Shown here in pieces: positions 11,465-15,364 of a stretch of DNA of 32,000 nt. Within the stretch, counting starts at the first letter, position 1; each line of letters begins with the position of its first letter. The stretch is from Halorhodospira halophila SL1 (GTDB lineage: Bacteria; Pseudomonadota; Gammaproteobacteria; Nitrococcales; Halorhodospiraceae), in assembly GCF_000015585.1 (NCBI RefSeq), contig NC_008789.1, forward strand, positions 1,410,001 through 1,442,000. The letters run 5' to 3'. The notes under the pieces are model-generated. The model did no database searches, was not told the origin of the DNA, and was given only the letters and a program-made list of their open reading frames with translations. Made by a program: the position numbers and the translations under genes.

Positions 11465-12637
11465 GCCGAGCACATTCCGCAAAGCGGGGTTGACAATCCC
11501 GATCGAGGCCGTCATCAAGCGCCTGCTTCTGCACAAGCGCCCATCTGACGCCTGGCAACCCGCTGATCCATGGAAGCGAATCGCTAGGTTATTGATTTTA
11601 AAAGCATGCACCGCTGATCAGTCTTTGTCCACCCAGCCTCGCATGCCCTCACGCCAAGGCCTCGGTCGAGTTTCTCCACATAGTTATCCACAGGTTTTGT
11701 GGAAAGCGAGCCTAAGCTCTACAGCCACGGTCCTCCGTTTCATCGCTCGCACTCATACCCGGGTTTGTTCGGCAATCTCCGCGAGCCGGCTCGGTCCGAT
11801 GCCGTCGACCTCTTCAAGCTGCTCGATCCGCCGAATCGGTCGCATGGCGACGATCGCCTCGGCGCGCTCCGGGCCGATGTGCGGGATCACCTGAAGCTCT
11901 TCGATGGAGGCGGTGTTGAGGTCGATCAGTCCCTGCGACAGGTCACGCCCTGGGCGGGATCGGCCGCACTGCCGTTGTGTCGTGTCCACCGGCAAGGCCG
12001 GCTCCAGACAGAGTTGCGCATGGTCGGCGAAGATCTCGAGCAGCTCTTCCTGCAGCACGGTCCGCGGACCCCGGGCCAGGGCCAGATCGTCCGCATCGAA
12101 CAGCAGCTCTGCCCGCCGCCCCCCGTCCATCCCTTGCGTAGCGGCCTCCGCCAGCAACGCGAGCACGATCCGATGCGCATCCTGTGTCAGCTTCACCGCG
12201 GCCCGGCAGCGCTCGAGCTCGGCAGCGACCTCTTCGAACACCTCCGGTGATCGGGGCAGGGCTTCAAAGCCCGGATTCTGGGTGACACGTTGCTGGACGC
12301 GGTGCCACCCCGCTTTGAGCGTTTCACCGCGCCCCCATAGGGCAACCGCCAGGGCGACTGCAGCACTGAGCCGGTCCGCGTCCCAGCGGTTGATCGCCTG
12401 CTCAACGGCCTCGTCGATCCGCCCGCGCTGGCGGCGCAACCGGGCATTGCGCCAACGCCGCGGCAGGGCGTGCACGTGGTCACCCACCCACTGCCCGAGG
12501 GCAACGGCGCCGCGCAGCAGCCCGCCAATGAGCATCAGGAGCAGCTGCACGCCACCGACAACGGCGGCGAAGAGCATATAGAAGACCTGAAGCTGGGCCG
12601 CCTTCTGCCCCCGGACCTGGACGCCGAAGAGCTTCGC
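11465..12637. repeat. Copy B of the ~1.2 kb segmental duplication (partner 2130..3322)
   Basis: See copy A. GAAGAGCTTCGC at 12626-12637 corresponds to 3311-3322, immediately before the IS. Confidence 0.8.
11672..11705 (+). promoter_or_regulatory. Triple DnaA-box-like motif, copy B (TTCTCCACA n3 TTATCCACA GGTTT TGTGGAAA)
   Basis: It contains a perfect consensus DnaA box TTATCCACA at 11684-11692, with flanking boxes at 11672-11680 and 11698-11705 (inverted). Confidence 0.55.
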
Positions 12638-12976
12638 CGAGGAGCGGTTGGGCTTGAGCCAGTTGAACGAGCCGAGCCGGTTGCGCGTGGAGACCGTCGC
12701 ACCGCTTTTGGAGAGGTTCAGCTTGGTCGGCCCGTTCCCGTAGCGTCCGCGCAGGATGAAACGGCCGTTCTGCAAGGCCACCTGGGTGTTCTTCGCCGGC
12801 GTCATCGAAGCCCGGACACCGCGCCGGGTGTTGGCGGTGAGGTTCACACCCGCCGCCCGGGCCTGGGCGCGCAGCGCCACGCCGCCGGTGCGACTGGCCC
12901 GCAGGTACTTGCCGCGGTGCTCAACGCGCCGCTGCTTGCCGTAGGCGTCCTTCTTGCCGAGATTGAACAGGCCCAT
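11753..12976 (-). CDS. DUF4236-like / single-TM / helical / ComEA-type helix-hairpin-helix DNA-binding protein
   Basis: The N-terminus is a Gly/Arg-rich beta segment with GPTKLNLSKSGATVS (DUF4236-like). TM helix: FYMLFAAVVGGVQLLLMLIGGLL. C-terminal ComEA motif: IDLNTASIEELQVIPHIGPERAEAIV...LEEVDGIGPSRL. ATG 12976 is preferred over GTG 12988. Confidence 0.8.
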   Translation of the reverse strand: MGLFNLGKKDAYGKQRRVEHRGKYLRASRTGGVALRAQARAAGVNLTANTRRGVRASMTPAKNTQVALQNGRFILRGRYGNGPTKLNLSKSGATVSTRNRLGSFNWLKPNRSSAKLFGVQVRGQKAAQLQVFYMLFAAVVGGVQLLLMLIGGLLRGAVALGQWVGDHVHALPRRWRNARLRRQRGRIDEAVEQAINRWDADRLSAAVALAVALWGRGETLKAGWHRVQQRVTQNPGFEALPRSPEVFEEVAAELERCRAAVKLTQDAHRIVLALLAEAATQGMDGGRRAELLFDADDLALARGPRTVLQEELLEIFADHAQLCLEPALPVDTTQRQCGRSRPGRDLSQGLIDLNTASIEELQVIPHIGPERAEAIVAMRPIRRIEQLEEVDGIGPSRLAEIAEQTRV

Positions 12977-12999
12977 CGCCTTCCCCACCGGTGCAGGTG

Positions 13000-13098
13000 T
13001 TACGCGGGGAAGGGCTTGCGCGCATCCAGCATGATGGCAGCGCCCCCCATCCCGAGGCCCGCCAGCTCCACAACGAGCACCGCAAGGCTAAGGCTCAT
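13000..13098 (-). CDS. Possible 32-aa hydrophobic peptide (MSLSLAVLVVELAGLGMGGAAIMLDARKPFPA)
   Basis: ATG-to-TAA ORF that exactly fills the gap between the 13146 stop and the 12976/12988 start. Its third-position GC is high and it has one predicted TM-like stretch. It is too short for the ORF track. Confidence 0.3.
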   Translation of the reverse strand: MSLSLAVLVVELAGLGMGGAAIMLDARKPFPA

Positions 13099-13145
13099 GA
13101 TGGCCGGCCCCACCCCAAGACTGCTTCAACGACCGCAACCGACAA

Positions 13146-13607: not shown

Positions 13608-13641
13608 TTTCCACAAAACCTGTGGAAAATGGTGTGGATAG
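13608..13641 (-). promoter_or_regulatory. Triple DnaA-box-like motif, copy C (reverse orientation: CTATCCACA n3 TTTTCCACA GGTTT TGTGGAAA)
   Basis: The plus strand reads TTTCCACAAAACCTGTGGAAAATGGTGTGGATAG. It lies ~110 nt upstream of the 13496 start, in inverted orientation relative to copy B. Confidence 0.55.
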
Positions 13642-13735
13642 GATGAGCGGATCGCCGCCGCGCGGTGCTTTGCAGCGATTGATCAAACCCTGCTCACCCC
13701 AGGCCCTGGCCGTCTTCGGGACAGCGGAGCGGCCG

Positions 13736-14125
13736 TCAGTCGCTGCGCCCGCGCAGCTGATCGAGTTTTGTCCGGACCCGCTCGCGGCGCGCCTCTGTGG
13801 CTGCCGGGTCGAGCGTGAAGTGGGCCTTGCGCAGGCCGTCCGTCAGCGCCCCCTCAATCCGCAGGGCGGAACCCTCCTCCACCCCTTCGGGCAGCCGATC
13901 GACCTCGACCTCGTAGACCGCTGCCGGATCCAGACCGACGAGCAGGCGGGCCACCCCGTCTTCGATAGCATCGACCGTTGCCGGCGTCGTCGCTGCGTCG
14001 GCCGACGAGCTGTCCGACCGTGTGCCTTCTTCATCCATGATCCTCGATTCCTCCGTATAACCGGTTGCAGACGCCACGCCCGCCCAGACGAGCGCGACGG
14101 CCACCGTACGCTCAACGCTCCTCAC
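13736..14125 (-). CDS. DUF3006 domain protein with N-terminal signal/anchor
   Basis: ATVDAIEDGVARLLV...VEVDRLPEGVEEGSAL...DPAATEARRERVRTKLDQL fits the DUF3006 pattern. GTG 14125 is preceded by GGGAGGA 7 nt upstream. It is divergently paired with an MBL/ComEC-like gene, as DUF3006 genes commonly are. Confidence 0.7.
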   Translation of the reverse strand: MRSVERTVAVALVWAGVASATGYTEESRIMDEEGTRSDSSSADAATTPATVDAIEDGVARLLVGLDPAAVYEVEVDRLPEGVEEGSALRIEGALTDGLRKAHFTLDPAATEARRERVRTKLDQLRGRSD

Positions 14126-14272
14126 GGTTCGATCCTCCCTGATCGCATGAGCAAGCAGGCATTCCGGCCCGCCCCCCTCAGCATGCCGGGCGCCGCGGCA
14201 TGAGGGGAACCTTGCCAATCGTCGTTTTTTTCGCCAGGCTCAACACTCCTCTTGGCAATACGGCGCGCGCTG

Positions 14273-15364
14273 ATGAGCCGACACCCACGGCGATGCGCGC
14301 TTGGGCGCGCCCTCGCCCTCTCCGTCCTGTTGGTCGCGACTGCCTCCCCGTCCACCGCATCGATGACGCTCACTTTCCTCGATGTCGGCCAGGGCGATGC
14401 CACCCTCGTCGCCGCTGATGGCCACTACGTGCTCATCGACGGCGGCCGGGGACGGGAGGACGCCATCGCCCCGCTGCGCGGCAAAGGGGTGCAGGCGCTC
14501 GATCTCATGGTCGCCACCCACGCCCACGCGGATCACATCGGCGGCCTGGTGTCCGTCCTGGAAGAGAAGTCGGTAGATACGCTCTGGTACTCCGGCGACG
14601 AGCACAGCACCCAGACCTTCGAGGCCTTCCTCGACGCCGCCCTCGGCAGCGGGGTTCGCTACGTCGAGCCCACCCGCGGGCATTCCCGAACCTTCGGCGG
14701 ACTGGAGGTGACCACCCTCCACCCCGGTGAGCAGACCTCAGGCAGCCACCTCCACGACCGCAATCTCGTCATCCGCCTCGACTACGGGGCCTGCTCCGCG
14801 ATCATCACCGGCGACATCGAGGGCAGCGGAGAGCGCGCCATCCTGCGCGCCGGGGTGAACGTCAGCGCGGACGTCCTGGAACTCGGCCATCACGGCAGCC
14901 GCTCCTCGACGACCACGGAGTGGTTCGAGGCCGTAGACCCGGATTACGCCGTGGTGCAATACGCCGAGGGCAATCCCTACGGCCACCCGCACGGCGAGGT
15001 CCTTGACCGCATCGAACGTATGGGCGCCGAGATGCTCGGCACCGGCGCGCACGGGACCATCCGCATGCGCTGCAGCGGTGGCGAGTGGCGCGTGCACACC
15101 GAGGTATCTGGGTCCGTGGTTGCCGGCGACCACGAGCCTGGGACTGACCGGGAACCAGAAGACGGGGCGGGTGCCGGGTGCATCGACCTCAATCAGGCAC
15201 CGGCTGAGACCCTTGAGCAGATCATCCACATCGGTCCGACTCGGGCCGAGGATGTGATCGATGGCCGGCCGTGGTCTTCGGTCTCCGAGCTTGAGGCCAT
15301 CGACGGCCTCGGGCCGGCTCGGGTGCGGGATATCCAGGAACAGGATGATGCTTGTGTTCGATGA
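14273..15364 (+). CDS. Secreted ComEC-like metallo-beta-lactamase-fold hydrolase fused to a C-terminal ComEA-type HhH domain
   Basis: Signal peptide: ALALSVLLVATASPSTA. MBL motifs: LDVGQGDA, ATHAHADHIGG, GHHGS. C-terminus: IDLNQAPAETLEQIIHIGPTRAEDV...AIDGLGPARV. Confidence 0.85.
   Translation: MSRHPRRCALGRALALSVLLVATASPSTASMTLTFLDVGQGDATLVAADGHYVLIDGGRGREDAIAPLRGKGVQALDLMVATHAHADHIGGLVSVLEEKSVDTLWYSGDEHSTQTFEAFLDAALGSGVRYVEPTRGHSRTFGGLEVTTLHPGEQTSGSHLHDRNLVIRLDYGACSAIITGDIEGSGERAILRAGVNVSADVLELGHHGSRSSTTTEWFEAVDPDYAVVQYAEGNPYGHPHGEVLDRIERMGAEMLGTGAHGTIRMRCSGGEWRVHTEVSGSVVAGDHEPGTDREPEDGAGAGCIDLNQAPAETLEQIIHIGPTRAEDVIDGRPWSSVSELEAIDGLGPARVRDIQEQDDACVR

Follow-up and report, generated by a model that had tools for sequence, protein, structure and literature searches.

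Do the five genes at 11753-15364 of the stretch analysed here, 32,000 nucleotides of Halorhodospira halophila SL1 (NC_008789.1, positions 1,410,001 to 1,442,000; hereafter the window), form a single system for handling DNA at the cell envelope? The initial annotation read them in this way, as one non-canonical cluster of 3.6 kb with helix-hairpin-helix (HhH) domains as a recurring theme. An ORF check of the window found all five reading frames in place. On balance, it seems probable that two independent units share the span: unit A, a predicted exported metallo-beta-lactamase (MBL) nuclease fused to an HhH domain (MBL-HhH) together with a DUF3006 protein, and unit B, an island-borne block holding a 411-aa HhH gene and a gene for an acidic protein. 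The features are as follows.

2341-2377: motif copy belonging to the paralogue
2420..3322, - strand: paralogue of the 411-aa gene, truncated to residues 117-411
11672..11705, + strand: triple TCCACA-box motif, TTCTCCACA-N3-TTATCCACAGGTTTTGTGGAAA, 3' of the 411-aa gene
11753..12988, - strand: predicted membrane-anchored HhH protein, 411 aa (likely start ATG 12976, giving 407 aa), defined by HHH_3 and family alignments A1/A2
12925-12611, - strand: its basic all-beta N-domain
12592-12461, - strand: its hydrophobic hairpin
12412-12020, - strand: its helical bundle
11929-11765, - strand: its HhH
13000..13098, - strand: hydrophobic ORF of 32 aa with no support as a gene
13146..13496, - strand: acidic 116-aa protein (GC1/2/3 0.80/0.39/0.83; GGAG ribosome-binding site)
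13605..13641, - strand: inverted motif copy (inverted repeat I4), about 110-145 bp upstream of the acidic ORF
13736..14125, - strand: DUF3006 protein, 129-aa form from GTG 14125, with a strong SD, AGGGAGGA, read from the sequence 7 nt upstream
14125-14063, - strand: its export-type hydrophobic N-terminus
13981-13751, - strand: its DUF3006 domain
14126..14251, no strand: divergent intergenic region between the DUF3006 and MBL-HhH genes, with promoters presumed from the gene arrangement
14252..15364, + strand: free-standing ComEC-type MBL hydrolase with C-terminal ComEA-type HhH, 370 aa, defined by Pfam, TIGR00361 and PDB matches (start TTG 14252; alternative ATG 14273)
about 14252-14362, + strand: its signal peptide
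14381-14959, + strand: its Lactamase_B domain (Pfam, 69.3 bits)
15182-15337, + strand: its HHH_3 domain, flanked by Cys codons (GC-IDLN ... AC-VR)

A ComEC-type hydrolase and its DUF3006 neighbour

MBL-HhH belongs to the same MBL subfamily as the C-terminal domain of ComEC/Rec2 (PDB 9ic4, 30bt; E 1e-37 to 1e-39). The match to TIGR00361 (E 1e-39) covers model positions 416-663 only and scores 136.3, under the cutoff of 190, and ComEC C-terminal domains are the nearest solved structures in a PDB search (E 1e-37 and 3e-34). The ComEC metal-ligand motifs HxHxDH, D, HHGS and GHPH are shared; H90/H92/D94/H95, D188, H213/H214 and H245 are invariant among the homologues, and the two-metal ligands of the C-terminal MBL nuclease domain, a feature of ComEC/Rec2, are all present. 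As in the ComEC C-terminal domain (Silale 2021, PMC8579336; Stedman 2025, PMC12455585), the predicted location is extracytoplasmic and a DNA-binding domain lies on the same chain. Unlike ComEC, MBL-HhH is a soluble protein with a signal peptide, in which Pfam finds neither the Competence channel domain (PF03772) nor the N-terminal OB fold DUF4131, and its DNA-binding domain is a C-terminal HhH, scoring 28.6 bits against HHH_3, just over the 27-bit cutoff. These domain identities are established, and the annotated picture of an MBL domain detached from any channel and fused to an HhH stands.

The annotated signal peptide is likewise supported by the homologues, nearly all of which carry one (lipoboxes also occur), despite the NCBI annotation, which starts the protein downstream of it and without a hydrophobic N-terminus. 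No clear SD precedes any start codon of the gene in the window. In 21 of 35 homologues the HhH is flanked by a pair of Cys residues, and relatives are fused to SLH, LysM, lamin-tail and Excalibur domains. The architecture could not at first be matched to a described system; the combination of MBL and HHH_3, though unstudied, is not unusual, and database searches show it to be frequent across phyla.

Anti-phage MBL effectors (Avs1a, LmuA-type, PDC-M48B and protease-activated MBL) were considered and rejected. Their PADLOC and NCBIfam matches are confined to the metal-binding motif, about 70 residues, and fall far under the cutoffs, a protease or NTPase neighbour is absent, and MBL-HhH bears a signal peptide. 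Protease-linked MBLs are only remotely related to ComEC (PMC12642450).

The divergent gene was correctly assigned to DUF3006 (Pfam 48.9 bits against a cutoff of 32.3). NCBI records a 100-aa version from an internal ATG, leaving out the hydrophobic N-terminus, but the N-terminal extension is kept in P0242 and in L086, a Halorhodospira relative. The intergenic region contains no match to the sigma-70 consensus. An AF2 model, built on a four-sequence alignment, has five strands and a helix; its Foldseek matches are weak (E 0.04-0.3). Profile comparison gives a modest match (E 5e-5) to the N-terminal domain of Chs5 from the yeast exomer (PDB 4wjw, 4in3), which recurs among the Foldseek matches; each consists of a small beta domain and a helix after it, and each is associated with protein-protein contacts. 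As Chs5 belongs to a eukaryotic cargo-adaptor context, functional transfer to DUF3006 is unwarranted. There is also a resemblance of the fold to OB/CSD barrels that bind nucleic acids.

The linkage of DUF3006 to MBL genes was established in this analysis and is not part of the Pfam definition of PF11213. DUF3006 adjoins MBL-HhH in Thioalkalivibrio, Fodinicurvata and L086, and the two genes are adjacent and divergent in both the window and L086. Among the 61 metagenome loci with enough flank, a DUF3006 gene abuts the free-standing ComEC-type MBL gene in 24, on the same strand every time, tightly and often with overlap, whereas full-length ComEC loci have no such neighbour (0/6). About 60% of the free-standing MBL loci lack it, so the partnership is not obligatory. 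A hydrophobic leader is found on 23 of 27 MBL partners and on none of the 27 DUF3006 partners.

The boundaries of unit A are likewise established. L086 can be aligned to the window over 13735-15366 only, at 72% nucleotide identity, with both flanks unrelated, and the pair is therefore a discrete two-gene module. An HhH protein of some kind lies beside it in both Halorhodospira genomes, perhaps a sign of a looser functional link.

The 411-aa HhH family and the motif-bounded block

All three proteins said to end in an HhH do so: HHH_3 matches the C-terminus of the 411-aa protein with 52.4 bits (E 5.7e-14) and that of the paralogue with 51.8 bits (cutoff 27), alongside the match in MBL-HhH given above. 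This paired DNA-binding domain is that of ComEA (HHH_3/TIGR00426; PDB 2duy, 8dss), and the MBL-HhH copy is predicted to be exported as ComEA is. By contrast with ComEA, the three proteins score only 27-41 on TIGR01259 (39.8 for the 411-aa protein, 41.4 and 26.8 for the others; cutoff 152) and lack an SLBB domain, and their HhH is joined to other domains: an enzyme in one case, and otherwise a large protein with a hairpin anchor, probably exposed to the cytoplasm.

The truncated paralogue was also correctly recognised, with 73% amino acid identity over residues 117-411. The duplicated segment, 2154-3301, matches 11485-12616; the paralogue is ended at 3322 by an insertion with inverted-repeat bounds, and its N-terminal domain is absent throughout the window. 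The three HhH proteins thus include a duplicate pair, which reduces the apparent coincidence to a single adjacency. The description of both as DUF4236-like is not supported by sequence: the paralogue lacks the N-terminal domain altogether, and that of the 411-aa protein stays under the cutoff for DUF4236 (PF14020; E 0.99, 10.4 bits against 27). The N-domain does share a ...LNLSKSG.S.S... motif with DUF4236, and four phage DUF4236 proteins are among its best 40 BFVD Foldseek matches, all weak (probability 0.28-0.92, E at least 0.3). DUF4236 is itself uncharacterised, as is DUF3320, which is encountered below.

The acidic 116-aa protein appears to be a real near-orphan on the evidence of its sequence. 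Conserved partnership with a neighbour, as had been suggested, is not borne out: among 1.84 billion representatives it has one real relative (73% identity), encoded in an alaS-lysC-csrA-tRNA context. The proposed 32-aa peptide has no homologue in any of 85 loci and its ORF no ribosome-binding site. DnaA-box-like 9-mers are indeed enriched in the window (13 found, 1.5 expected), and a 19-nt motif core is identical in all three motif copies; the motif pair does not frame the whole cluster, however, but encloses only the 411-aa/peptide/acidic block (11672-13641). Unit B would accordingly be an island-borne block between inverted triple TCCACA motifs, in which the acidic near-orphan accompanies the 411-aa gene.

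One system or two units

If the five genes made up one integrated envelope system for the capture and degradation of DNA, the 411-aa protein would be a membrane receptor feeding DNA to the MBL nuclease, with the acidic protein and the peptide as accessory subunits. The adjacency of the genes in this genome and the HhH domains common to three proteins speak for this, as does the HhH protein flanking the DUF3006/MBL pair in L086, although that is a different, secreted one. The neighbourhood data largely refute it. The 411-aa family was found at 83 loci, mostly in halophiles, and at none of them does an MBL, DUF3006, acidic ORF or peptide gene lie within 10 kb; the idea of one system fails because the co-localisation it calls for is not seen. 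Homology to L086 stops at the DUF3006/MBL pair, the only relative of the acidic gene has unrelated surroundings, nothing supports the peptide ORF as a gene, and the motif pair sets the 411-aa/acidic block apart. With the 411-aa HhH also placed in the cytoplasm by topology signals, a single system is highly improbable.

Those signals bear equally on the view that the 411-aa protein, named a ComEA family protein by NCBI, is a periplasm-facing, ComEA-like DNA receptor with a single N-in/C-out pass. The AF2 model (pLDDT 86.5) draws one continuous helix over residues 128-188, as expected if the protein crossed the membrane once and had its HhH in the periplasm, and the HhH, the only part of the model to match a solved structure, resembles the ComEA-related 2duy (E 3.9e-11, TM 0.86) and 8dss. 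Against this, the hydrophobic span of about 52 residues is split centrally by a conserved Arg and is K/R-rich on both flanks, with nine R/K following it in the window protein and a net charge of +26 on its N-domain. The Cys pair seen around exported HhH domains here is found in none of 77 family members. A leaderless DUF3320 protein (Pfam E 5.5e-11), absent from the window, follows HhH-less forms of the family only (18/43 versus 0/26), and the TIGR01259 score lies far below its cutoff. A periplasmic receptor is thus unlikely; the HhH probably faces the cytoplasm and not the envelope, and the protein is probably not the envelope DNA-binder of the initial annotation. Members of the family would instead be hairpin-anchored DNA-binding proteins.

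Proposed action of the MBL-HhH/DUF3006 pair

The best reading of unit A is that of a periplasmic, DNA-tethered predicted nuclease with a DUF3006 regulator. In experiments the C-terminal domain of ComEC acts as an Mn-dependent nuclease and is more active when a DNA-binding domain is present in cis (PMC8579336, PMC12455585). By analogy, exported MBL-HhH would use a two-metal mechanism to cleave DNA, as endonuclease and 5'-3' exonuclease, while its ComEA-type HhH would tether it to DNA without sequence specificity, taking the role of the OB fold of ComEC in holding the substrate near the active site. DUF3006, a small five-stranded barrel with a basic helix, would bind the nuclease and regulate or restrain it. 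In most organisms it would act in the cytoplasm, before export; the Halorhodospira protein would have gained an export signal of its own.

A related proposal treats the two proteins as a toxin-immunity style pair and departs from the best reading only in the role of DUF3006, which would be a purely cytoplasmic inhibitor shielding the DNA of the producer until a DNase is secreted against competitors or for the remodelling of biofilm eDNA. Secreted nucleases with intracellular inhibitors have precedents in barnase with barstar and NucA with NuiA, where an exported nuclease gene likewise lies beside a gene for a small leaderless product; the likeness rests on gene pairing, not on sequence or fold. 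The tightly abutting same-strand genes, the leader counts and the Chs5-like, protein-interaction character of the DUF3006 profile suit this proposal. It is nevertheless doubtful, given that the Halorhodospira DUF3006 has an export-type N-terminus and is transcribed divergently, that most free-standing MBL genes lack the neighbour, and that the fold is also akin to nucleic-acid-binding barrels. More improbable still is an auxiliary competence module, in which MBL-HhH would supply a strand-degrading nuclease and a ComEA-like grip on DNA in trans to a ComEC channel, above all where ComEC is without a lactamase domain of its own. The MBL domain is specifically ComEC-type, many ComEC proteins do lack Lactamase_B (PMC6299819), and a secreted ComEA-like protein adjoins the pair in L086. 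Competence genes are absent from the window, however, where, as first reported, no ORF of at least 150 aa encodes a pilus, ComEC-channel, DprA or ComF protein. Around the relatives the neighbouring genes vary, none of them a com, pil, dprA or comF gene, and the cell-wall and extracellular anchoring domains on relatives are typical of secreted nucleases.

Thus, where the initial annotation had offered several roles in DNA capture and degradation, periplasmic or extracellular degradation is the most reasonable reading for MBL-HhH, by analogy with ComEC, and the 411-aa protein is probably not a receptor in such a process. The family of unit B occurs mainly in salt-loving bacteria and is uncharacterised; the pair of unit A, likewise unstudied, is widespread. 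Its target would be DNA reaching the periplasm, with a part in the turnover of nutrient DNA or eDNA or in the clearance of incoming DNA.

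Organisation of the cluster and its surroundings

The window lies on the Halorhodospira halophila chromosome. Its left half, to ~15.4 kb, is island-like, and the right half consists of ordinary chromosomal genes. Domain searches place an IS3-family transposase, a GGDEF protein and an SRAP (SOS-response-associated peptidase) in the left half, together with fragments of S24/UmuD-like, Y-family-polymerase-like and Schlafen-helicase genes. The features discussed below are as follows.

Features of the cluster and its paralogous copy
2341-2377, + strand: TCCACA motif copy, 3' of the paralogue
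2420-3322, - strand: paralogue, a shortened copy of the 411-aa gene
3321-3361 and 8109-8149: 41-nt inverted repeats, 85% complementary
11672-11705, + strand: TCCACA motif copy, 3' of the 411-aa gene
11753-12988, - strand: gene for the 411-aa HhH protein
13000-13098, - strand: 32-aa ORF
13146-13496, - strand: acidic 116-aa ORF
13605-13641, - strand: TCCACA motif copy, inverted, upstream of the acidic ORF
13736-14125, - strand: DUF3006 gene
14252-15364, + strand: MBL-HhH gene, a 370-aa ComEC-type metallo-beta-lactamase (MBL) with a C-terminal ComEA-type HhH

The initial annotation treated the cluster as one DNA-binding and DNA-processing system. Its domain observations were largely right, whilst the single-system interpretation is not supported. 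All five ORFs of the cluster exist, and Pfam and NCBIfam find HHH_3 as the C-terminal domain in the 411-aa protein, the paralogue and the MBL protein (the last barely above threshold) and support the ComEC-type MBL and DUF3006 domains. As had been stated, no pilus, ComEC channel, DprA or ComF gene is found among the window ORFs of at least 150 aa. NCBI proteins match the products of the MBL and 411-aa genes at 100% identity. The proposed DUF4236 domain of the 411-aa protein lacks sequence support (E 0.99, 10.4 bits against 27); Foldseek returns a few weak matches to phage DUF4236 proteins, which may reflect a remote relationship. Within 10 kb of the 411-aa family gene, not one of 83 loci contains an MBL domain, a DUF3006 gene or either of the small ORFs (acidic or peptide).

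An RBS and a coding-like composition mark the acidic 116-aa ORF, yet a search of 1.84 billion representatives gave its product a single real relative, encoded after csrA and two tRNA genes with no other cluster gene nearby. The 32-aa hydrophobic peptide has no support as a gene.

The paralogue shares 73% identity with the 411-aa protein over residues 117-411. Its first 116 codons were lost at the insertion flanked by the 41-nt inverted repeats. The missing N-terminus is absent from the window, including beyond the right inverted repeat, and the event was therefore not a simple insertion. The 4.8-kb unit between the repeats, which carries the IS3-family transposase (3395-4927), the GGDEF protein (5124-6845) and the SRAP (7061-7714), looks like a composite transposon. 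Along with coding DNA, ~270 bp 3' of the 411-aa gene (11485-11752) are conserved beside the paralogue (2154-2419) at 75-79% nucleotide identity; the TCCACA motif aside, this DNA has no recognised feature and no Rfam match.

Two neighbours of the cluster may be recorded separately. Directly right of the MBL gene comes an M-box (Mg2+) riboswitch (15650-15831, + strand; Rfam RF00380, 127.8 bits), followed by a gene for a short, 216-aa MgtE-domain protein (15966-16616, + strand); this pair is an independent unit. To the left, a 200-aa ORF (10396-10998, - strand) encodes an evident signal peptide and ends in ...ARF, as small outer-membrane beta-barrels typically do; it has no Pfam or PADLOC match.

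A probable ComEC-type nuclease paired with DUF3006

Among solved structures, the MBL domain is closest to the C-terminal nuclease domains of ComEC (E 1e-37 and 3e-34), and its metal-binding motifs are all invariant in a 24-sequence alignment. MBL+HHH_3 proteins of ~340-370 aa are common across phyla, many coming from haloalkaliphiles (Thioalkalivibrio, Alkalicoccus, Alkalispirochaeta and Fodinicurvata). Nearly all MBL homologues carry signal peptides or lipoboxes, and related free-standing MBLs bear SLH, LysM, lamin-tail or Excalibur domains. A Cys pair around the HhH, present in 21 of 35 MBL-HhH homologues, is suggestive of a periplasmic disulfide. Because of these export signals, anchoring-domain fusions and paired cysteines, MBL-HhH probably lies outside the cytoplasm, and we infer a periplasmic, DNA-tethered nuclease. 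An anti-phage effector role was considered and rejected, since the PADLOC matches are partial and no partner gene is present.

The NCBI start of MBL-HhH at M38 (333 aa) drops the signal peptide, within a hydrophobic N-terminus (14252-14362) that is conserved in relatives; that of DUF3006, at an internal ATG (100 aa), likewise drops a conserved hydrophobic N-terminus (14038-14125), although the GTG at 14125 has a strong SD in front of it. Both annotations are probably too short and conceal the export signals.

DUF3006 lies next to the MBL gene, or one gene off, in every inspectable relative. Eighty metagenome loci were retrieved with the MBL alignment and DUF3006 was sought with an iterated profile; a same-strand, abutting DUF3006 ORF was found in 27 of the 80, and in 24 of the 61 with at least 400 bp downstream. 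No DUF3006 accompanies full-length ComEC in the six loci inspected. In a blastn comparison of the window with a locus from a Halorhodospira relative (L086), the match is confined to 13735-15366, its ends falling at the stop codons of the two genes and the DNA on either side showing no relationship; the DUF3006/MBL-HhH pair is therefore a discrete module. In L086 the pair is flanked by a gene (157-729, + strand) for a secreted 190-aa ComEA-like HhH protein that shares with the MBL HhH both the Cys pair and the C-terminal ...ACV. In two genomes, therefore, the pair has an HhH protein of one sort or another as its neighbour. A metagenome protein listed as an MBL+DUF3006 fusion (P0065) was rejected as Rosetta-stone evidence: its middle reads like out-of-frame HhH, and it is probably a frameshift, read-through, gene-calling or assembly artefact that shows adjacency only.

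Profile comparison links DUF3006 to the protein-interaction domain at the N-terminus of Chs5 (E 5e-5). An AF2 model built from a shallow alignment of four sequences has five strands and a helix (pLDDT 76-91 within the domain), and Foldseek matches it to small barrels (eIF5A, cold-shock, S1, IF1 and Chs5) with high probabilities and weak E-values. Of 27 metagenomic pairs, 23 have a hydrophobic leader on the MBL protein and none has one on DUF3006; Halorhodospira departs from this, its DUF3006 proteins having an export-type N-terminus. Secreted nuclease/inhibitor pairs are known in which the partners differ in compartment, and the mismatch seen here resembles them. We infer that DUF3006 acts directly on MBL-HhH, as its regulator or guard. 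In the literature searched, no paper describing free-standing ComEC-type nucleases or mentioning DUF3006 was found. The pair is an unstudied variant that combines a ComEC nuclease with a ComEA HhH, without a channel and with a DUF3006 partner.

The 411-aa protein family and the TCCACA motif

Members of the 411-aa family are ~400 aa long, come mostly from halophilic and haloalkaliphilic bacteria of several phyla, and are extremely conserved over the N-terminal 130 residues. The AF2 model of the 411-aa protein (pLDDT 86.5) begins with an all-beta N-domain, continues with a long hydrophobic helix and a helical bundle, and ends in the HhH, which alone has a solved-structure match in Foldseek. The hydrophobic span of ~52 residues is divided by a conserved Arg and is K/R-rich on both sides; the N-domain has a net charge of +26, and the Cys pair around the HhH is absent from the family. 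The favoured topology is a membrane hairpin that leaves the two soluble domains, and so the HhH, on the cytoplasmic side, because of the Arg-split span, the K/R flanks and basic N-domain, the lack of the Cys pair and the leaderless nature of the DUF3320 partner.

This DUF3320 protein, encoded directly downstream, is the sole consistent partner of the family. It accompanies 18 of 43 members lacking the HhH versus none of 26 bearing it (hypergeometric P ~4e-5, ignoring relatedness). The neighbourhoods of the 83 loci are otherwise heterogeneous, with WYL regulators (9-10 loci), SRAP (9), HsdM (7-9), ADP-ribosylglycohydrolase and DSP phosphatase (5-7) and an ICE-like backbone (1). In H. halochloris an SRAP gene (L005:3897-4565) lies directly upstream of the family member. 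The recurrence of SRAP, with the UmuD-like and Y-family-polymerase-like fragments at 43-2098 of the window, hints at a DNA-damage-related island context. The family has no match in sequenced plasmids or phages, nor in PADLOC; with an ICE backbone in only one of 83 loci, 'mobile-element gene' is too strong a label and 'variable-region gene' suits it better. A role at the membrane, acting on intracellular DNA (exclusion, defence or element maintenance), would be a guess. The block at 11672-13641 represents an uncharacterised family with novel folds.

The sources of the family (L003-L085) and of the closest MBL-HhH relatives are overwhelmingly halophiles or haloalkaliphiles of unrelated phyla, among them Halorhodospira, Thioalkalivibrio, Guyparkeria, Spiribacter, Desulfonatronospira, Alkalispirochaeta and Alkalicoccus, which suggests habitat-bound horizontal spread.

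The DnaA-box-like motifs had been thought to frame the whole cluster. Two inverted copies instead bracket only the 411-aa/acidic block and leave the DUF3006/MBL-HhH pair outside. The motif is a composite of two direct and one inverted TCCACA boxes, present three times in the window. The three copies share one and the same 19-nt core, TCCACAGGTTTTGTGGAAA, whilst the adjoining paralogous DNA is 75-88% identical; the motif includes a perfect 8-bp inverted repeat, TTTCCACA-GGTTT-TGTGGAAA (N5 spacer), and a consensus DnaA box, TTATCCACA, at 11684. An intrinsic terminator or structured RNA was considered and rejected on the weak fold (z -1 to -2), the lack of a U-tract and the lack of an Rfam match. 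The motif resembles an operator bound by a dimeric protein, or two paired DnaA boxes, more than a terminator, and is probably a protein-binding site. A diverged version occupies the same position in H. halochloris; the core is absent from 1.17 Mb of related loci, and its single viral-contig match is at chance level by our own estimate.

Implications

That two undescribed things lie side by side here, a channel-less 'mini-ComEC' DNase system with DUF3006 and a new membrane-anchored halophile protein family, is a tentative and, as it stands, rather doubtful reading. The former would be widespread, with a secreted ComEC-type nuclease under the control of a dedicated small-barrel DUF3006 acting as inhibitor or adaptor. 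The 411-aa-type proteins would be hairpin-anchored at the inner membrane face, with two folds lacking a solved-structure match and interchangeable DNA-binding modules, either a fused HhH or a separate DUF3320 protein; they sit in variable regions, near genes for WYL regulators, restriction-modification and SRAP, and could serve as a new means of exclusion of, or defence against, foreign DNA. The family offers two confidently predicted folds without a solved-structure match, and is a clean case of module swapping. For annotation, the labels 'ComEA family DNA-binding protein' and 'ComEC/Rec2 family competence protein' are attached to proteins that are probably not competence proteins, and NCBI start sites strip the export signals from both proteins of the pair. 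If the 'mini-ComEC' reading is true, it would provide the first function for DUF3006 and a new class of regulation for nucleases outside the cytoplasm. Genomes and metagenomes, those of the human gut included, commonly contain free-standing ComEC-type nucleases; should the pair be a secreted DNase under regulation, it would bear on eDNA turnover, phosphorus scavenging and transformation barriers in many bacteria.
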